This document shows, in pieces, positions 2,458-61,360 of a stretch of 64,000 nucleotides of DNA. The stretch lies in contig CAKOTX010000002.1 in the NCBI GenBank assembly GCA_934120315.1, positions 19,185 to 83,184 on the forward strand, in the 5' to 3' direction. Source of the stretch: an uncultured Clostridia bacterium. GTDB taxonomy: Bacteria; Bacillota; Clostridia; TANB77; CAG-508. The position numbers were made by a program, and so were the translations under genes. Positions within the stretch are counted from its first letter, which is position 1. The number at the start of each line of letters is the position of its first letter. The notes beneath the pieces are model-generated. The model made no database searches, was not told the DNA's origin, and saw only the letters and a program-made list of their open reading frames with translations.

Positions 2458-3828
2458 TTATAAATCATATACAGATAATTCTTGTTTGAAGAAATGTTCA
2501 TCTTTACTAGTAAATAAATCTAAGTTATTGCTTTTTCTTACATAATTGCGAATTTCCCATAAGCCAATACCAAAGTGATTTTCTTTACCAGATTCACCTT
2601 TTTGAAATATTTTTTCAATATCAACATTTTTATTTCTATATGTGTTTTTTACAGTTATTACAGCTCTATTATTTTTGTTTTCTCTTAAGAATGATACTTT
2701 TACTATTTTTTCATCACATTTTTCAGCTTCTTCTATAGCATTGTCGAGTAAAATTCCAATTGCTCTAGAAAATTTGTACATATTAACATTTAATGTATCA
2801 AGATTTAGAAAAAATTCTAGATCAAAAGTAATACCAAGGTTGGCGGCTTTAAAATATTTATTGTTTAATAAACTATATATCCCAGGATTATTTATGATAT
2901 GAGGATTTACTAAAGATAAATTATTAGTTATTTTACAATCAGCTTTTATTTCTTTAAAGTAACGTTTTAATCCAGGCATATCATTATTTTCTATAAATCC
3001 ATCTAATGTTGAAACAATATTATCAAAATCATGTTTATAACCTTTTACTTTATCATATAAGATTTCTAGTGATTTTGTATAGTCTTCAGCACATTCTAGA
3101 CTTTTTGTTGTGTTAGCAAGTTTAATTATACGAAAAAAACTATGACAACTTAATGTTAGAAAGGCTACCAGCAGTATGAAATTAAGAATACTAATGGTAA
3201 GAGGAACTATATTTATATAAAATGCTGTTGTTATTAATTGTGTACATATTGTGACAAAACCAGTAAATATATTTATTATTAATAATCGAGATGTACTTTT
3301 ATCTAATGCATCAAGTTGAGATAAATCAAAATTTAATTTTTTGAATTTTTTTAACTGTTTTATTGTAATAATTACTACAAACATGCAAAAGTATAGGATT
3401 GAAAGGTATAAAACTCTATATATAGGAGTGCTTATAAATACATTAGAATTTATATTAAAAATAGTTAAATATGTATTTTGTAATAAAGTATTTAATAACC
3501 CAAATATGAAACTAGGCACAAAAAGCGAAAATAAACTTTTTACAATGTTAAGTTTAAATAATTTGTATATTAATATAAGAATACAAGTATAATTTAAAAT
3601 AACATTAAAAGGAGATTGTATGTAAGCTTGACTAATAATACTTACAATAGAATTTATTACAACATAAATAGATTTTTCTTTAGTAGAAGCATTTACATTA
3701 AATAAATTTAGGAAAACTTGCATAAATAGATAATGCTCAATGAAAGTTGCTGGTATTAGCAATATATTAACAAGTTCTATGTTTTGACTGTTTAAAGCAT
3801 TCCAAATATTACTTAAAAATTGTATCAT
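2458..3828 (-). CDS. AgrC/VirS-type (HPK10) membrane sensor histidine kinase
   Basis: Hydrophobic N-terminal half with several predicted TM helices. C-terminal GHKL ATPase (ILLDNAIEEA N-box, HFGIGLWEI G-box). Forms an operon with a LytTR regulator. Confidence 0.8.
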   Translation of the reverse strand: MIQFLSNIWNALNSQNIELVNILLIPATFIEHYLFMQVFLNLFNVNASTKEKSIYVVINSIVSIISQAYIQSPFNVILNYTCILILIYKLFKLNIVKSLFSLFVPSFIFGLLNTLLQNTYLTIFNINSNVFISTPIYRVLYLSILYFCMFVVIITIKQLKKFKKLNFDLSQLDALDKSTSRLLIINIFTGFVTICTQLITTAFYINIVPLTISILNFILLVAFLTLSCHSFFRIIKLANTTKSLECAEDYTKSLEILYDKVKGYKHDFDNIVSTLDGFIENNDMPGLKRYFKEIKADCKITNNLSLVNPHIINNPGIYSLLNNKYFKAANLGITFDLEFFLNLDTLNVNMYKFSRAIGILLDNAIEEAEKCDEKIVKVSFLRENKNNRAVITVKNTYRNKNVDIEKIFQKGESGKENHFGIGLWEIRNYVRKSNNLDLFTSKDEHFFKQELSVYDL

Positions 3829-13246: not shown

Positions 13247-14206
13247 ATGAAATCAAAAAGAAAAGTAGTTTTAGTAGGAGCAGGATTTGTAGGAATGAGT
13301 ATGGCTTACTCATTGTTAAATCAAGGAGGAGTAGAAGAATTAGTATTAATAGATGTTAATAAAGATAAAACTATTGGAGAAGAAATGGATTTATCTGATG
13401 GTTTACCATATGCACCACATAAAATGAAAATAAAAGCAGGAGATTACAGTGAATGTAAAGATGCTAATATTGTAGTAATTACAGCAGGACTAGCACAAAA
13501 GCCAGGACAAACAAGATTAGAATTAGCAGTAGTAAATGCAAAAATTATGAAAGAAATAACACAAAATGTAATGGCAAATGGATTTAGTGGAGTATTTATT
13601 GTTGCAAGTAATCCTGTTGATTTAATGTCATATGTTGTTGCAGAAGTTTCTGGAATGCCAAAATCTAGAGTAATTGGTTCAGGAACAGTATTAGACACTG
13701 CAAGATTAAGATATTTAATTGCAGAATATCTTCAAGTATCAAGTAAAAATGTACATGCTTATATTTTAGGAGAACATGGGGATTCTTCATTGGTTCCATG
13801 GGATCATTGTTATGTTGGATGCAAAAAAATGATAGACATTATGAAAGATAATAATTATCCAATGGATGATTTAAAGAAAATACATGATGGAGTTTGGCAA
13901 GCTGCTTATAAAATAATAGAAAAGAAAAAGGCCACATATTATGGAATTGGTATGGCATTAAATAGATTAGTACATGCAGTACTAAATGATGAAAATGCAA
14001 TTCTAACAGTATCAACATATCAAAATAATGAATATGAACAAGAAGGAATGTATATTGGAGTTCCAGCAATAATTAATAAAGATGGTGTAAAAGAAATTTT
14101 ACAATTAAAGTTAAATGATGAAGATCAAGCTAAATTCAATCATAGTTGTGAAATTATGAAAGAAAATATAGAAAAAGAAATTAGACCAATAATAAATGAA
14201 AATTAG
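13247..14206 (+). CDS. ldh: L-lactate dehydrogenase
   Basis: KVVLVGAGFVG NAD-binding motif and LDH catalytic region (SNPVD, VIGSGTVLDTAR, EHGDS). AAGGGAGGA RBS before ATG13247. The track start at 13208 overlaps the upstream gene. Confidence 0.9.
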   Translation: MKSKRKVVLVGAGFVGMSMAYSLLNQGGVEELVLIDVNKDKTIGEEMDLSDGLPYAPHKMKIKAGDYSECKDANIVVITAGLAQKPGQTRLELAVVNAKIMKEITQNVMANGFSGVFIVASNPVDLMSYVVAEVSGMPKSRVIGSGTVLDTARLRYLIAEYLQVSSKNVHAYILGEHGDSSLVPWDHCYVGCKKMIDIMKDNNYPMDDLKKIHDGVWQAAYKIIEKKKATYYGIGMALNRLVHAVLNDENAILTVSTYQNNEYEQEGMYIGVPAIINKDGVKEILQLKLNDEDQAKFNHSCEIMKENIEKEIRPIINEN

Positions 14207-14293
14207 TAAAAATATAGAATTTCTGTTAACAAATTTTTATATTACAATTAAATTGATAAAATAATAAAAAATAAAACAAAGGAGATATAAAAT

Positions 14294-14431
14294 ATGAAAA
14301 GACTTGTAATCGTTGGGGCTGTACACACACACACACACACCGACACTCTAGAAAATAAAAATGTCAGAAATGACAAGTCTTTTTGCATACCTAAAAATAG
14401 AGGAAGCTTAAAAGAAAAATGTGAAAAATAA
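14294..14431 (+). CDS. small ORF (45 aa, MKRLVIVGAVHTHTHTD...) containing an (AC)9 microsatellite; probably a remnant of an NAD/FAD-binding oxidoreductase 5' end, or a leader peptide
   Basis: Strong RBS AAGGAGATATAAAAT-ATG. The N-terminus MKRLVIVGAV resembles a Rossmann N-terminus. The ORF is too short to be that enzyme. Not in the ORF track. Confidence 0.3.
   Translation: MKRLVIVGAVHTHTHTDTLENKNVRNDKSFCIPKNRGSLKEKCEK
14323..14340. repeat. (AC)9 dinucleotide microsatellite
   Basis: Directly visible ACACACACACACACACAC followed by CGACAC. Such repeats are rare in AT-rich bacterial DNA. Confidence 0.95.
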
Positions 14432-14500
14432 GCTACTTTCTTTTTAGGTCTTTTTTTATACTAAAGATTTTTGGAGATGCTATAAAGGTGGAGAAAAAAT

Positions 14501-17035
14501 ATGAAACTAGTCAAAAATAAAAATATGTTATTATTATTTATATTATTTGTAACTATATTATTAATGTCAGTAGGATATGCATCAATAAATTCAGTAACAG
14601 GAGATATAGAAGGAACTGCAATTGCAGATGCACAAGAAGGAGTGTTTATAACAAATATAGCATATGTGAGTGATGTGAATGCAAGTGCAAGCAATTCAAA
14701 AGTAAATAAATTTCTTGGAACAGTAATGGATAGCACTATGCAATTGTCTGATACGGATGTGAATTCAAGTATAACATATAAAGTAACGGTTTATAATAAA
14801 GGAACAGAAGGAGCGATATTTCAGAAAATAACTTATGCAAATGATTTTTATGACAATAATGATATAATATTTGAGATAAGTGGTTTTACAACAGGAGAAA
14901 CAATTGCTTCAAATGAAAGTAAAGAGATAATTATAAAATTTAAGTATAAAGGAACAACAGTGCCTGATAATAATGTGTTAAATTCATATTTGAATTTTGT
15001 GATAAAAGCACCTAATAGGATGACAGTTGCTAGTAATCCTGGTCCTAATGAGGATGGCGCTTTATATTTTAGTGGGCAAAATTCAGAAATAAGATGTTAT
15101 CAAATAGAAACAATAGCATTTAAAAAGGGAAAAGAGTCAGATATAGCAGAAGAAATAAAATATAAATTTGATGTATCAGAAAAACAAGATGGAAGTATAA
15201 TAGGATATTATACAGATGAAAATAATGATGAAATGTATGATTTAACATTTTTGAGTGAGGATATAATTTATGCAAATAAAAATTCCAGTTATTTATTTGC
15301 GGAATTAATAAATTTAAAAAGTATAAATTTTGAGAATTTTACAATAGATGGTGTTACAGATATGAGTGCAATGTTTTATGATTGTGTCAGATTAGCCAGT
15401 TTAGATGTAGTAAGTCAATTTGACACAAGTAAAGTTACTAATATGGGATTTATGTTTTATAGATGTATTAGTCTGACAAGTTTGGATGTTAGCAATTTTG
15501 ACACAAGTAAAGTTACTGATATGGGAGGAATGTTTTCTGGATGTAGTAGTTTAACAAGTTTGGATATTAGCAATTTTGATACAAGTAAAGTTACTAATAT
15601 GAATTTTATGTTTGGATATTGTGAGAGTTTAACAAGTTTGGATTTAAGTAACTTTGACACGAGTATGGTAACTGATATGAGCACAATGTTTTATAGATGT
15701 TTTGTATTAGCAAAAATAGATTTAAGCAACTTTAATACTAGCAATGTAACTAATATGGGAAGTATGTTTGAGTCTTGTCAACAATTAACAGAATTGAATA
15801 TAAGCAACTTTGATACTAGCAATGTAACGAATATGGGAGGTATGTTTGAGCAATGTGTCAGATTAACAGAATTGGATGTAAGCAACTTTGATACAAGTAA
15901 GGTAACAAATATGAGATATATGTTTCATACGTGTTGGGAGCTAAAAGAATTGAATGTAAGTAACTTTGATACAAGCAAGGTAACGAATATGGCGCTGATG
16001 TTTTATAATATCGGATTGACAGAATTGGAGTTAAGTAATTTTGATACGTACAATGTAACAGATATGGTAAATATGTTTAATTCATGCTACAATTTAACTA
16101 CGATATATGTGAGTGAATACGATTCAACAACAAGGAAAGGATGGACAACAGAAAATGTAACAAGGTCAGAAAAGATGTTTGAAAAAGTTTCGAACTTAGT
16201 AGGAGGAAATGGCACAAAATACAATTCGAGTTATATAGATGTAACTTATGCACGAATAGATACAGCAGATACCCCTGGATATTTAACCAATATTGCAATG
16301 AAAAATCCTAATAGGATGATGGCTAATACTACTTTTAATGTTGGTGGGCATGATAACTATCTGGATGCAAGTGTTGCAAAAGATAAAATAGAATCAATAA
16401 AGTTCAAAAAAGGAGGAATATCTAATATAAAATCTGAAATAAAATCCCAATTTGATGCATCTGAGAAGAAAGATGGAAGCATAATGGGATATTACACAGA
16501 TGAAGATAACAATGGAATGTATGAACTTACATTTTTAAGCGAAAATATAATTTTTTGCAATAAAAATGCAACAGGATTATTTTACAATTTAAAGAATGTA
16601 AAGAATATTGAATTTGACAACTTTAACACATATGGTGTGACAACTATGGACAGAATGTTTTCAGGTTGTAGCTTGTTAACTACATTAGATTTGAGTAAAT
16701 TTGATACTAAATCTGTTGTTAATATGAGTGGAATGTTTGTTGGATGTACTGGATTAGTAATTTTAGATTTAAGTGGATTTGATATGTATAATGTTACAAG
16801 TATAGGAATGTTTTGTTGGGGAACTCAAAAATTAACAACAATATATGCAAAAGAATTTAATTCTGAAACCAAGTCTGGATGGACAATGGAAAATGTTTCA
16901 TCAGACGGAGGAATGTTTACAGGGTGCATAAAATTAGTAGGAGGAAATGGAACGGTGTATAATTCTAATTATGACGATAAAACTTATGCTCGAATAGACA
17001 CAGCAAGTACGCCAGGATATTTAACTAAAAAGTAA
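14501..17035 (+). CDS. BspA-type leucine-rich-repeat surface protein (26-residue 'FDTSxVTxMxxMFxxCxxLxxLDLSN' repeats), two duplicated modules
   Basis: N-terminal signal/TM segment. Ten or more tandem 26-aa repeats matching the Listeria/Treponema BspA 26-residue repeat. Two similar modules, each ending in VGGNGTxYNSxYxDxTYARIDTAxTPGYLT. Confidence 0.8.
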   Translation: MKLVKNKNMLLLFILFVTILLMSVGYASINSVTGDIEGTAIADAQEGVFITNIAYVSDVNASASNSKVNKFLGTVMDSTMQLSDTDVNSSITYKVTVYNKGTEGAIFQKITYANDFYDNNDIIFEISGFTTGETIASNESKEIIIKFKYKGTTVPDNNVLNSYLNFVIKAPNRMTVASNPGPNEDGALYFSGQNSEIRCYQIETIAFKKGKESDIAEEIKYKFDVSEKQDGSIIGYYTDENNDEMYDLTFLSEDIIYANKNSSYLFAELINLKSINFENFTIDGVTDMSAMFYDCVRLASLDVVSQFDTSKVTNMGFMFYRCISLTSLDVSNFDTSKVTDMGGMFSGCSSLTSLDISNFDTSKVTNMNFMFGYCESLTSLDLSNFDTSMVTDMSTMFYRCFVLAKIDLSNFNTSNVTNMGSMFESCQQLTELNISNFDTSNVTNMGGMFEQCVRLTELDVSNFDTSKVTNMRYMFHTCWELKELNVSNFDTSKVTNMALMFYNIGLTELELSNFDTYNVTDMVNMFNSCYNLTTIYVSEYDSTTRKGWTTENVTRSEKMFEKVSNLVGGNGTKYNSSYIDVTYARIDTADTPGYLTNIAMKNPNRMMANTTFNVGGHDNYLDASVAKDKIESIKFKKGGISNIKSEIKSQFDASEKKDGSIMGYYTDEDNNGMYELTFLSENIIFCNKNATGLFYNLKNVKNIEFDNFNTYGVTTMDRMFSGCSLLTTLDLSKFDTKSVVNMSGMFVGCTGLVILDLSGFDMYNVTSIGMFCWGTQKLTTIYAKEFNSETKSGWTMENVSSDGGMFTGCIKLVGGNGTVYNSNYDDKTYARIDTASTPGYLTKK
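15329..16120 (+). repeat. tandem 78-bp coding repeats (about 10 copies) encoding the 26-aa LRR units
   Basis: Repeated ...aattttgacacaagtaaagttactaatatggg... units visible at 78-nt period. Confidence 0.85.
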
Positions 17036-17048
17036 AAAATGAAAAAGA

Positions 17049-17088
17049 AATTTAGAAGAGATTCTAGATTTCTTTTTTGTTATTATAT
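17049..17088 (+). terminator. rho-independent terminator after LRR protein gene
   Basis: GAAATTTAGAA-gag-TTCTAGATTTC stem followed by T6. Confidence 0.65.
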
Positions 17089-17123
17089 GTTAAAGGTGTT
17101 AACCTGTTTTTCATGATTAATAC

Positions 17124-28414: not shown

Positions 28415-28506
28415 TTGCATGTAATGGTTCATTACACAATTTAATGATAGCTTATAATAGGGCTATTATGAATTATCCTTAAAACATTATTACAAGGAGG
28501 AATAGT

Positions 28507-29148
28507 ATGCCAGGAATTTTGTATCATCTTAGTTTTGCAGAGGAGGTATATCGGAAATTAGCACCAGTCATGCCTTTGGATAAGGTTTCTTTTATGGCTG
28601 GCAACCTGATTCCTGATTTGGCCACCGACAAGAAAAAGTCTCATTATCGCAAGAAAGCGTCTGTCGACGGTTTCTTTGTTCCTGAAATGGAATTGGTAAA
28701 AAGAGACCTATTCGTGCCTGAGGACTCAGTTAAGTTCGGAATGTTCTGTCACCTGTATCTGGATTATTATTTCATCGAGGAGTTCTTGATTCCTGAATTT
28801 ATTTGGGATGTTGATAAGATGAGAGTAATCAATCCTAGAAACCACAAAGAGTGGGATGTAAAGACTTTCTTCTCTCATTCTGGTATGTATGGTGCATACA
28901 CCGAAATCAACCAGCTGATGGTGAGAGATGGTCATGTATCACTCAGCACTGTTGAAGAAATTCCGGAAATTCTGCCCAACACAGGCTTGACCGTGTTTGA
29001 TACAAGACGCGAAAAGACCTGGAAGGCAGAGCTGGAGGAGTATTTGGCACAGAAAAAAGAATATACCGGAGAAATTTTTGATTATAATAGGTTGTGGAGC
29101 TGTATCGAAAGAATCGCAACCCAATTTGTAGAAGAAATTTCTAAATAA
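28507..29148 (+). CDS. GC-rich (about 42%) hypothetical protein, possibly a zinc-dependent phospholipase C-like / metal-dependent hydrolase (weak call)
   Basis: His/Asp spacing recalls the Zn-PLC family (H7, D37, H46, HLYLD with H+4 D). Codon usage is unlike the host: ctg, gcc, gac and ggc are used. Confidence 0.5.
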   Translation: MPGILYHLSFAEEVYRKLAPVMPLDKVSFMAGNLIPDLATDKKKSHYRKKASVDGFFVPEMELVKRDLFVPEDSVKFGMFCHLYLDYYFIEEFLIPEFIWDVDKMRVINPRNHKEWDVKTFFSHSGMYGAYTEINQLMVRDGHVSLSTVEEIPEILPNTGLTVFDTRREKTWKAELEEYLAQKKEYTGEIFDYNRLWSCIERIATQFVEEISK

Positions 29149-29166
29149 GTTATACAAAATGGCAAA

Positions 29167-29208
29167 GAGCCACTGAACTGCAAAGTTTGGTGGCTCCATT
29201 CTTTTTTA
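29167..29208 (+). terminator. terminator after GC-rich gene 1
   Basis: GAGCCAC...GTGGCTC stem followed by CATTCTTTTTT. Confidence 0.55.
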
Positions 29209-29216
29209 TAGGAAAT

Positions 29217-29242
29217 CCCCCCAAGACGTTAGTCTTGGGGGG
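29217..29242. other. perfect 11-bp G/C-rich stem-loop CCCCCCAAGAC-gtta-GTCTTGGGGGG between convergent genes
   Basis: Seen directly. No flanking T-run on either strand. Confidence 0.8.
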
Positions 29243-29276
29243 ATAGATTAGAGCTTGAAACTATCGGTTTTGTCGA

Positions 29277-30830
29277 TTATTCGGCAGGGTTGACAGCAGG
29301 AGCCTGAGTAGGCTGCTGAGCCTTCTCGTCCTTTTTCTTGTCGAACATATCGAGCATCAGGTATCCCATGACAGGGTTGTTGGCTCCGGTCATATTGCCA
29401 CCCATCATGGAAGACATGAGAAACACCTTCATCATGTCGTCATCGCCGCCGTCCTTCTCCTTCAGGAGCATGAGCGGAAGCAGCTGGTTCATAGTGGCAT
29501 TCTGATCGCCATCTTCTGCCGGAGCAGACATAATGGAAGACATGAGCATCATCTTCATCATGTCGTCATCGCCACCGAGCTTGTCCTTGAAAAGCATCAA
29601 CGGAAGCAGCTGGTTCATCTGACCGCCGTCTTCGCCGGACTGGCCACACATTGCAGACATGATAGCCAGCTTCTCGACATCAAAGTCATCGCCCATGTTG
29701 AAGGAATCGCTGAGAGCGATAATCTTGGAATAGCAGCTGAAGCCCAGAACATTCTTGATAGGAATGACAGTCTTCATCTCGCCGGTCTTGGCACACAGGG
29801 TCTGGGTGCTTCCCTTTGCAACCTTCATTACGAAGTAGTATTCGCCGGAGTCCTTGATGAGGTCGCCCTCGTTCAGCTTGGTAGTAGGCAGAATGAAGAT
29901 AGGAAGATTGCCAAGCTGCATGTCGCCGACATCGGTGATTTCTTTCTTCTTCTTGTCGTAGATCCGCCAGTTGTCGCCGTTCTTGACAGCAACACCCATC
30001 AGGGTACTCGCGATGTTTTCGTCTTTGTTGGGACCGAACTCCATGTTCATGTTAAAAATGTTGTTTGCCATAGTAGTATCCTCCTTGATTTCTTGTTGTG
30101 TGGATTGTTCCGCTTGTCGTTGTTGTTGTTCGAGTTCTCTGGTTCTCAGTGCACTTTCGCGTTCTTGCAAAGATTGTTCCTTGTCTTTTAAAGCATTTTC
30201 ACGCTCTTGCAAAGATTGTTCATTGCTTTTTAAAGCATGTTCACGTTCTTGCAGTTCACGCGCTTTGCACATCAATTTACCAGCTTTTGCGAATTTTTCA
30301 TAGTCGGACTGTTCGAATTCAAAGCCCAATGTAATGGCCATAAGAAGCGTATTACCTTTGTCACCCAATTTGACACAATTACAATGGTCTACGTATTCAC
30401 AAGTCCAGCATATGTTGCTTCCTACTTGACTATCTGCGGTAAATGGAACACTGAAAGTAACAATGGGTTTATCCGAATGTTCAATGATAGAATCAATCGG
30501 AAATTTCCCACTCATATTCTGCTTAGCTCTTACACAAATTTTTTTTGTCGAATAGTTAAGGGAGTTGCCATAGAAATAAATTTTATAGCAACCTCGATTA
30601 TGATTAGACGGGATATTAGGACATTCGAAATTAGTTTGGAAATCGTAAGAATCGTAATCTCCTAATTTGTGGTAGCTGTTCCAGTCGTGCCATTCTCCGC
30701 AATAGGGACATAGAAAGCGTTTCGGGGTCAAGTCCAAGAGTCCTTTTTCCACGAAGGCATCCTCCTTGTCTATACTGCTAGGTTGATAGTTTCTAACTCC
30801 TTTCTTAATAGTGTATTTGTGCATATACAC
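29277..30830 (-). CDS. GC-rich (about 48-50%) hypothetical 517-aa protein: Cys-rich N-terminal domain, 14-aa coiled-coil repeats, central globular domain, duplicated Met/Asp-rich C-terminal repeat
   Basis: CPYCGEWHDW...CPNIPSNHNRGC...CWTCEYVDHCNC Cys clusters. (R-E-x-A-L-K-x-x-E-Q-S-L-Q-E)x3 repeats. The unit GGQMNQLLPLML(F/L)K(D/E)K-GGDDDMMK occurs twice. Confidence 0.7.
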   Translation of the reverse strand: MYMHKYTIKKGVRNYQPSSIDKEDAFVEKGLLDLTPKRFLCPYCGEWHDWNSYHKLGDYDSYDFQTNFECPNIPSNHNRGCYKIYFYGNSLNYSTKKICVRAKQNMSGKFPIDSIIEHSDKPIVTFSVPFTADSQVGSNICWTCEYVDHCNCVKLGDKGNTLLMAITLGFEFEQSDYEKFAKAGKLMCKARELQEREHALKSNEQSLQERENALKDKEQSLQERESALRTRELEQQQRQAEQSTQQEIKEDTTMANNIFNMNMEFGPNKDENIASTLMGVAVKNGDNWRIYDKKKKEITDVGDMQLGNLPIFILPTTKLNEGDLIKDSGEYYFVMKVAKGSTQTLCAKTGEMKTVIPIKNVLGFSCYSKIIALSDSFNMGDDFDVEKLAIMSAMCGQSGEDGGQMNQLLPLMLFKDKLGGDDDMMKMMLMSSIMSAPAEDGDQNATMNQLLPLMLLKEKDGGDDDMMKVFLMSSMMGGNMTGANNPVMGYLMLDMFDKKKDEKAQQPTQAPAVNPAE

Positions 30831-30886
30831 TTTAGGCTACCAAAGTCAATTTGCCTTTGATATAAGCACATAAAATACCAACATCT

Positions 30887-30915
30887 ATTATACTGCGACT
30901 TTACATAAAAGTCAA
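30887..30915 (-). promoter_or_regulatory. consensus sigma-A promoter (TTGACT-17-TATAAT) for GC-rich gene 2
   Basis: On the minus strand, -35 at 30915-30910 and -10 at 30892-30887. About 55-nt leader. Confidence 0.55.
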
Positions 30916-30982
30916 TATATTTCTGTTTTATTCACATTTTGTACGCTAAAATGGTGGATAGGAACTCAATATCATTAACTTA

Positions 30983-31026
30983 ATGAAAAAAAGAGAAAAC
31001 CTACAAAAATTTGTAAGTTTTCTCTT
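30983..31026 (-). terminator. terminator of the 31061-31465 gene
   Basis: AAGAGAAAAC...GTTTTCTCTT stem with a T-run in minus orientation. Confidence 0.65.
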
Positions 31027-61204: not shown

Positions 61205-61360
61205 ATAAATTATCAAGAGTGGAGTAGAGAACGGCTCGTTAATCCCACAGCAACCTATCGATAGACAAGGTGCTAAAACCGGCAAAGCATTGGCTTTGAG
61301 TGATGATTGAATAAAAGTGAACTCTTAGCATATGCTGGGGGTTTATTTTTATTATATAGG
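61205..61360 (+). promoter_or_regulatory. SAM-I (S-box) riboswitch leader of metK
   Basis: P1 5'-AAUUAUC...GAUGAUU-3'. S-box-like AUCAAGAG-UGGAG...GCAACC and AAGGUGCUAAAACC elements. T-rich tract before the RBS. Confidence 0.6.

Follow-up and report, generated by a model that had tools for sequence, protein, structure and literature searches.

Between the L-lactate dehydrogenase gene ldh (13247–14206) and the gatC, gatA and gatB genes of an uncultured Clostridia bacterium lie a short leader open reading frame (ORF) built around a dinucleotide repeat and, downstream of it, a gene for a BspA-like leucine-rich repeat (LRR) protein. Both were analysed in a 64-kb stretch of DNA, referred to as the window, whose positions are used throughout; the leader, the LRR gene and their elements lie on the + strand. 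The repeat is a perfect (AC)9 tract at 14323–14340, located by direct reading and by Tandem Repeats Finder (TRF), and it encodes His-Thr repeats. Of the 90 TRF rows for the window it is the only array with a period of 2, and an 18-mer search allowing up to two mismatches returned the (AC)9 site only, with 0.00 sites expected from 100 dinucleotide-preserving shuffles. The GC content of the window is 29.3%, and these counts bear out an earlier sequence-only reading that had called such a tract very unusual for a low-GC genome.

In the n = 9 phase the leader ORF has 45 codons (14294–14431, ORF reading; product MKRLVIVGAVHTHTHTDTLENKNVRNDKSFCIPKNRGSLKEKCEK) and is preceded by the Shine-Dalgarno (SD) sequence AAAGGAGA (14278–14285), whose GGAG ends 9 nt before the ATG. 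The sequence-only reading had placed the repeat in frame in a 45-codon ORF with a good ribosome-binding site upstream of a BspA-like gene, and all of these descriptive elements are correct. An element that it did not contain is a predicted attenuator at 14389–14459, identified by folding. This consists of a 19-bp hairpin, with its 5' arm at 14389–14410, its loop at 14411–14428 and its 3' arm at 14429–14449, followed by the U-run CUUUUUUUAU (14450–14459). The stop codon of the leader ORF, TAA at 14429–14431, forms the first three bases of the 3' arm and lies 69 nt upstream of the LRR-gene ATG at 14501. In the other two phases of the repeat, frame reading places the stops at TAG 14349–14351 and TAA 14356–14358, yielding peptides of 19 and 22 residues (computed with 10 and 11 repeats); from their ends to the hairpin the gap is 37 and 30 nt. 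A simple terminator scan of 13900–14800 detected nothing, because the loop of the hairpin is longer than 8 nt and its G-C pairs are few. Rfam searches of the window at gathering thresholds and a permissive scan of 14200–14520 gave no relevant family, only chance microRNA and small nucleolar RNA matches.

We retrieved contigs of the same locus from independent human-gut metagenome assemblies, including Hadza samples, by their identical Ldh, GatC and YbeY proteins. Flanks at the locus align at essentially 100% identity across samples while the length of the (AC)n tract differs, with n = 4, 7, 7, 9, 11, 12, 13, 13, 16 and 17 in the other samples. The longest tracts are n = 17 in ERZ4561101 and n = 16 in ERZ4561419, followed by n = 13 in ERZ27287106 and ERZ28618678, n = 12 in ERZ4567746, n = 11 in ERZ27287122, n = 9 in ERZ28618570 as in the window, n = 7 in ERZ27287133 and ERZ27287143, and n = 4 in five samples. 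Copies with n = 13 and n = 17 (L002 and L090) nonetheless have 0 mismatches in the 2,700 nt downstream, as do copies with n = 7 and n = 12 (L004 and L115), and copies with n = 16 and n = 11 (L001 and L003) have 1 mismatch in 2,700 nt. Tract length is changing much faster than point substitutions accumulate, and the tract is hypermutable among near-identical genomes. A check for (AC)n heterogeneity in related strains, proposed in the sequence-only reading, came out positive between samples, with n = 4–17 on near-identical flanks. In two cases, L008 and the 56-kb L105, the contig breaks off exactly within the (AC) tract. Given an assembly k-mer far longer than the tract, these breaks suggest length heterogeneity left unresolved by the assembler in those samples, and within-population length variation is hinted at by these two contigs only. 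As a practical matter, contig breaks at AC tracts are a sign that such tracts fragment metagenome assemblies.

The n = 4 lineage, represented by five samples, differs from the others in its downstream gene. Here the LRR gene has decayed by an A6 to A7 frameshift (A6 at 16406–16411 in the window, A7 at 3035–3041 of L091) and a 220-bp deletion. The (AC)4 tract is phase-locked, being too short to slip readily, and because all five (AC)4 samples carry a broken LRR gene, the collapsed repeat and the dead gene go together.

The leader ORF belongs to a large family. A single-sequence search with the 45-aa product identified 18 mini-ORF clusters with homologues of 42–69 aa, and a profile search raised this to at least 84 clusters, down to ∼40% identity. 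Exact look-up of the 45-aa product returned no record; an identical cluster representative, P0001, was found in the sequence search. About 73 of the 84 clusters keep at least two His-Thr units, in runs of differing length, and a clear His-Thr run is present in about three quarters. Four members (P0044, P0051, P0055 and P0065) have Tyr-Ile runs (VYIYIYT) instead of His-Thr, which suggests that a TA-type tract has arisen from their AC tract by mutation, or that the AC tract has decayed. Six others (P0009, P0037, P0060–P0062 and P0064, with DNA in L109 and L130–L132 that reads GGTATGAATTATGAAAAG) have a second, out-of-frame ATG 8 nt upstream, from which the products start MNYEKTCNRWGC; the window copy is without that ATG. 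In those paralogues another repeat phase could reach the long frame by way of the second ATG, which is probably inefficient, being only 1–2 nt after the SD. Scans for DNA patterns with the conserved core matched one Joint Genome Institute (JGI) metagenome contig and no viral contigs.

The mini-ORF product gave no Pfam match at E values up to 10 and no meaningful PDB match. We reject its identification as the remnant of a Rossmann oxidoreductase on these grounds and because the motif reads VGAV rather than GxGxxG, at a position that varies among G, V, A, E, L and M in the family. The sequence-only reading had offered such a remnant, or a deletion scar, as the origin of the ORF; with no match to a known family, at least 84 clusters of the mini-ORF itself, and leaders that share one architecture, that origin is not supported.

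In the contexts that we read, each leader copy is followed, ∼55–150 nt further on, by a gene whose product is an exported or membrane protein. DUF285 genes are preceded by the leader at three loci, namely the ldh locus, a site between the AA-kinase and GH77 genes and a position after peptidase M50, and at the latter two the DUF285 proteins share the N-terminal domain of the window protein. Other copies precede operons of predicted lipoprotein genes, recognised by eye from lipobox-like LTGCG or LSGCG motifs, and of membrane-protein genes. The L132 contig carries two leaders 2.7 kb apart, and the copy at the M50 locus was found in the same three samples as the copy at the ldh locus, and in one of them the two contigs have coverages of 5.4 and 6.2. 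The shared samples, the similar coverage and the paired leaders make several copies per genome likely. Most paralogues have a clear promoter upstream of the mini-ORF, either TAGACA-17-TATAAT or an extended −10 of the form TGnTATAAT. An (AG)13 tract in the related species contig L088 (3275–3300) was considered as an analogue and rejected, as it lies between the clpC stop codon and a terminator-like hairpin and the next gene has its own promoter. That gene encodes a prepilin-like, RCC1-repeat protein, and its promoter reads TTGATA-N-TATAAT.

We compared the architecture of 11 distinct leaders, the window copy included. In all 11 the repeat lies inside a short ORF with its own ribosome-binding site and ATG. 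In the other leaders read as DNA the SD at the equivalent place is mostly GAGGAGG, GGGGAGG or GGGGAGA, with weaker forms in L111 and L113 (GAGAAGG) and in L124 (GAGGATG). One phase of the repeat (n = 9, 12, 15; the phase of the window) opens a long ORF, which ends at +88 (or +73) counted from the repeat, and the other two phases stop +3 to +15 after it (11/11 leaders in both cases). The stop of the long frame falls within the hairpin in all 11, the two L132 copies having a single earlier long-frame stop inside the 5' arm. Across the 28 codons that follow the repeat, the long frame has 0 stops as against 2–5 in the other frames (9/11 leaders). Variable columns are distributed as 16/14/6 over codon positions 1, 2 and 3, and the mean ratio of nonsynonymous to synonymous substitution rates (dN/dS) is ∼1.5. 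A long frame held open with such a ratio fits an ORF in which translation matters and the peptide product does not.

A U-run directly follows the hairpin in 11/11 leaders. The window hairpin has a predicted stability of −15.7 kcal/mol (z = −2.1 versus shuffles), and 7 of the 10 other leaders have hairpins of −18 to −28.5 kcal/mol with z scores of −3.2 to −7.2. Weaker hairpins are found in the subfamily of the window, at −15 to −17.5 kcal/mol (L091, z = −2.6; L124, −15.0 kcal/mol and z = −2.3), and in L111 (−11 kcal/mol, z = −1.0). The inner helix is AGCUUA/UAAGCU in the window subfamily versus AAAACUG/CAGUUUU in the rest, indicating that the hairpin has been preserved through replacement of a helix.

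Two further elements lie between the leader ATG and the attenuator. The most conserved block of the family, TGTCAGAAATGACAAGTCTTTT (14362–14383; 20 of 22 columns invariant in alignment A3), comprises a mini-hairpin GUCA-GAAA-UGAC at 14363–14374, of the family form GUCA-GNRA-UGAC, and then a U-rich run. The RNAalifold consensus shows five invariant pairs here. With low confidence, we suggest this block as a candidate pause signal that would let the ribosome catch up with RNA polymerase. In addition, sequence and folding reveal an 11-bp inverted repeat that encloses the tract. Its 5' arm AAAAGACTTGT (14297–14307) covers leader codons 2–5, and its 3' arm (14373–14383) overlaps the conserved block. 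The 3' arm is invariant in the 11 leaders and changes in the 5' arm are wobble-compatible or amount to one mismatch; no compensatory changes of this inverted repeat were found among the 11.

Taken together, this geometry of ORF, stop codons and hairpin is conserved across a large family of leaders before surface-protein genes. The (AC)n tract is probably a slipped-strand contingency switch in a leader-peptide ORF that controls the DUF285/LRR gene by translation-dependent antitermination. Gain or loss of AC units would cycle the leader ORF through three phases. With n = 9, 12, 15 and so on, the ribosome would translate at least 45 codons, through the 5' arm of the hairpin to the UAA at the start of the 3' arm, so that the terminator could not fold, transcription would proceed into the LRR gene and the gene would be ON, which is the predicted state of the window. 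In the other two phases the ribosome would stop 30–37 nt upstream, the hairpin would form and most transcripts would end at the U-run, leaving the LRR gene OFF or low. The model predicts ON for n = 9 and OFF for n plus or minus 1. Termination at the hairpin, translation of the ORF and the assignment of ON to the long phase are inferred. The decay of the LRR gene behind a collapsed n = 4 tract is counted in favour of the switch.

Other routes from the leader to the gene fit the locus less well. That the LRR gene has a promoter of its own, placed after the terminator, is judged unlikely: the U-run lies 41 nt from the ATG, and the sole −10-like hexamer in this gap, in TGcTATAAA at 14478–14486, overlaps the SD and would give a nearly leaderless mRNA, so there appears to be no room for such a promoter. 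We reject translational coupling, because the stop of the long frame and the ATG of the next gene are ∼60 to >150 nt apart, a spacing too large and too variable for classic coupling. Rho-dependent polarity is also judged unlikely, since the leader is C-poor outside the tract and a predicted intrinsic terminator is present. The sequence-only reading had proposed a phase switch for the surface protein acting by translational coupling or transcript stability; the hypervariable slipped-strand site has held up, and the route it gave is less likely than antitermination.

The closest described system is that of the pil1 and pil3 pilus operons of Streptococcus gallolyticus, in which the length of a leader-peptide ORF depends on the GCAGA repeats that it contains (Danne et al. 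2014, PLoS Pathog, PMC3894217). That switch was shown to work in Lactococcus lactis as well. There, a peptide ending 39 nt before a −18.7 kcal/mol terminator (≥28 nt in other isolates) is associated with low pilus transcription, and peptides ending within or after the hairpin with high transcription, in a manner that needs both the leader ATG and the terminator (PMC3894217). In each system a simple-sequence repeat is embedded in a short leader ORF that carries a ribosome-binding site of its own and belongs to the 5' leader of an operon or gene for a surface structure, and a stem-loop stands before the first structural gene (−18.7 and −28.2 kcal/mol there; predicted −15.7 to −28.5 kcal/mol here, with L124 at −15.0 and L111 at −11). 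In both, the repeat number differs between isolates and more than one such leader occurs per genome. The short peptides end ∼28–39 nt before the hairpin there and 30–37 nt before it here, and the long peptides end within or after the hairpin, the stop here being the first triplet of the 3' arm; the distances in the 11 leaders agree with the thresholds described for S. gallolyticus (PMC3894217).

The two systems also differ. The repeat unit is the pentanucleotide GCAGA there and the dinucleotide AC here, and the window leader has no sequence resemblance to the pil1 leader as compared by its published description only. This makes the Clostridia leader a mechanistic analogue of pil1/pil3 and not an evolutionary member of that system. 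In S. gallolyticus the long peptide arises from two out-of-frame states, whereas here it arises from one of three phases. Unlike the streptococcal leaders, the Clostridia leader forms a diverged family of at least 84 clusters before many unrelated surface-protein genes, and it has two extra elements, the inverted repeat that encloses the tract and the invariant block of mini-hairpin and U-rich run. Full-text literature searches returned S. gallolyticus as the only described case of a repeat in a leader peptide combined with attenuation, and nothing on these Clostridia. We classify the Clostridia leader as an apparently independently evolved switch of the S. gallolyticus kind, not as a categorically new one.

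Two older paradigms share parts of the proposed logic. In classical ribosome-mediated attenuation, as in the Escherichia coli pyrBI operon, where the leader ORF overlaps the terminator, and in the trp and his leaders, the position of a ribosome on the leader is read out by the terminator. The likeness is greatest to the pyrBI type, in that a ribosome on the leader ORF decides whether the terminator folds and the leader ORF runs into the terminator, so that a ribosome close behind the polymerase would prevent termination. In contrast to pyrBI, trp and his, the input here would be a heritable and reversible DNA frameshift rather than charged tRNA or UTP, and no alternative antiterminator helix was identified in the Clostridia leader. 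In Helicobacter pylori, CT repeats in the signal-peptide regions of outer-membrane protein genes give phase variation. As in the Clostridia leader, a dinucleotide tract sits close to the 5' end of its ORF and shifts the frame by slipped-strand mispairing, and the outcome proposed for the Clostridia is likewise the switching of a surface protein. The H. pylori tract, however, lies in the structural gene and truncates the protein, whereas here it lies in a separate leader ORF and would act through a terminator.

Several features of the leader could be read differently. The ORF might vary in phase as proposed and yet act after transcription, through mRNA stability or by opening a structure that affects LRR translation. 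The minimum-free-energy fold of the 261-nt leader pairs 14346–14354 with 14471–14479, near the LRR ribosome-binding region, and the window hairpin is only moderately stable, as this explanation would allow. It leaves the U-run conserved after the hairpin in 11/11 leaders unexplained, however; the distance from stop to ATG excludes classic coupling, and the post-terminator spacers of the other leaders differ in length and sequence. We regard it as unlikely, though as the strongest of the alternatives. A further step down in probability is a tract that acts without translation, its length tuning RNA or DNA structure or the binding of a protein in a graded rather than three-phase manner. The inverted repeat that encloses the tract, with its invariant 3' arm, and the unstructured nature of CA-rich tracts speak for such a role, but it gives no account of an SD and an ATG in every copy, nor of a 28-codon open frame that lacks peptide conservation, the early stops of the other phases and the stop within the hairpin, and the inverted repeat is without compensatory changes.

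Nearly as improbable as a translation-independent tract, and slightly more so, is the explanation that the ORF is neutral, either a degraded gene start or the scar of an insertion that has travelled with the LRR cassette, and that its repeat slips as microsatellites do without regulating anything. The cassette was recently inserted into the ldh terminator and the repeat phases at the ldh locus are near the neutral 1:2 ratio, as expected of a passenger. Under neutrality a microsatellite should decay, yet the clear His-Thr run persists in about three quarters of the 84 diverged clusters, and DNA-verified copies at unrelated loci conserve the ribosome-binding site, stop geometry and hairpin. Moreover, the ORF resembles no protein family, and it is exactly in the lineage with a downstream pseudogene that the tract has shrunk to n = 4. 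Least probable of all, and very doubtful in our view, is that the long peptide is itself the functional phase-variable product, such as a small regulator or a signalling peptide. Many assemblies annotate the ORF as a gene, and a few of its positions are conserved (N, K, D, K, F, I, L). These residues coincide with the conserved RNA block at 14362–14383, however, and variation is mostly at codon positions 1 and 2 with dN/dS ∼1.5, includes radical replacements at single sites (C/Y/R/N/G/S), and extends to peptide length, which ranges over 42–49 aa through the use of different stops within the hairpin.

A number of observations weigh against the antitermination switch itself. Most family members were found via ORF calls, which biases the collection toward copies with an open long frame; the concern is partly answered by L091, L113 and the first L132 leader, which were found independently of ORF calling and also keep the long frame open. 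The window hairpin, with its 18-nt loop and z of −2.1, is among the weakest class in the family. Only one compensatory pair was seen in the hairpin (G-C ↔ U-A), and with compensatory change so scarce the comparative support comes mainly from conservation and from the helix replacement between subfamilies. Among copies at the ldh locus with an intact gene, phases are split 3 long to 7 short, no different from the neutral expectation, so that selection and neutrality are indistinguishable by this count. In the window the candidate promoter is the −10-like hexamer TACAAT at 14243–14248, which aligns with the TATAAT of paralogous leaders, and the −35 TAGACA of the paralogues is replaced by ldh-terminator sequence; a promoter consensus scan also lists TTAACA-17-TAAATT at 14226–14254. 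With the ldh terminator split and the −35 lost, the window leader may owe part of its transcription to polymerase reading through from ldh. A race between ribosome and hairpin in Bacillota could also be weakened if transcription and translation are as loosely coupled as is reported for Bacillus subtilis. The organism is uncultured, and the effect on expression is deduced from sequence.

The putatively regulated gene (14501–17035) encodes an 844-aa LRR protein of the DUF285/BspA type, which starts with a hydrophobic signal or anchor segment. Pfam assigns it PF03382 (DUF285; E = 1.9e-76, five stretches) along with weaker LRR_4 and LRR_8 matches, and its repeated DUF285 LRR units are those that define the BspA type. 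TRF detected a 78-nt periodicity at 15419–16047. The gene has the SD sequence AAAGGTGGAG (14484–14493, sequence reading) and is followed by a terminator-like hairpin at 17045–17080, with arms AAGAAATTTAGAA and TTCTAGATTTCTT and then a T-run, identified by reading the sequence only. The LRR allele of the window differs from those of L001, L004 and L115 by 3–5% at the nucleotide level (88–125 mismatches/2,700 nt, with small indels), while the flanking housekeeping genes differ by <1%. The far greater divergence of the alleles than of their flanks makes the LRR gene a local diversity hotspot, through repeat recombination or diversifying selection.

Comparison with empty sites shows that the leader, the DUF285/LRR gene and its terminator form an inserted cassette of ∼2.87 kb (14224–17103), bounded by a direct repeat TGTTAAC at 14224–14230 and 17097–17103. 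In the sister species L009–L013 ldh is followed directly by gatC, with no cassette, and the same order is found in L092, L097, L100, L102 and L104, whose YbeY or GatC is identical to that of the window. The cassette is a presence/absence polymorphism, inserted into the loop of the ldh terminator. Strains without it have an intact ldh terminator and a 318-aa Ldh with a different C-terminus. The uninserted terminator hairpin, AGAAUAGGUUUUCUGU...ACAGAGAACCUAUUUUU, has a stability of −21.3 kcal/mol in these strains and the sister species; the window retains the left arm alone, as the remnant 5' arm GAATTTCTG at 14217–14225. Homology to the paralogous L124 cassette begins at window position 14228. 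The leader was not found by blastn or an nhmmer profile at the ldh loci of 80 related species genomes (1.1 Mb), which identifies the cassette as inserted rather than ancestral at this locus. At species level the closest genomes are metagenome-assembled genomes of uncultured Clostridia, with 97% Ldh identity to UMGS1852, and more distant relatives are Clostridium sp. CAG:575, CAG:492 and Candidatus Merdicola.

Two features elsewhere in the window were recorded in passing. A stretch of ∼2.5 kb at 28500–31000 has a GC content of 40–50% in a 29% GC genome and looks horizontally acquired; it contains ORFs at 28507–29148 (+, 213 aa) and 29277–30830 (−, 517 aa), the latter including tandem repeats of 126 bp and 42 bp that code for Gln/Glu-rich and Met-rich repeats. 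An S-adenosylmethionine (SAM) riboswitch (RF00162) lies at 61207–61309 (+; 72.4 bits, E = 5e-15).

Pathogens supply the best-known examples of surface proteins that switch at random, and the switches described in gut commensals are mostly invertible promoters. The Clostridia leader suggests that the logic of the S. gallolyticus system has evolved independently with a dinucleotide repeat. The at least 84 leader clusters, the several loci per genome and the occurrence of this uncultured Clostridia lineage in Hadza and other human gut samples suggest wide use, and the putative targets include BspA-like adhesin candidates and predicted lipoproteins. More tentatively, and with somewhat less than even confidence, we propose that the leader is a portable, plug-in module of promoter, AC-repeat leader ORF, pause-like mini-hairpin and terminator. 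Duplication and insertion would have spread it to dozens of surface, lipoprotein and membrane-protein operons across small-genome uncultured Clostridia of the human and animal gut, giving each cell a combinatorial set of surface proteins that switch at random, a phasome, and the GUCA-GNRA-UGAC and U-rich block would keep RNA polymerase in step with the ribosome on the leader. If this is true, the synchronising block would be new relative to the S. gallolyticus system.

Because the predicted state of the switch can be read as n modulo 3, metagenomes could be mined for the ON or OFF state of surface genes in individual hosts and through time, and the mechanism could be tested in paired metatranscriptomes, with no culture needed. 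In annotation, mini-ORFs of this type and contig breaks in their tracts should count as regulatory features and not as hypothetical proteins or assembly noise. A mechanism described in one organism may in this way extend to a widespread uncultured lineage of the gut.

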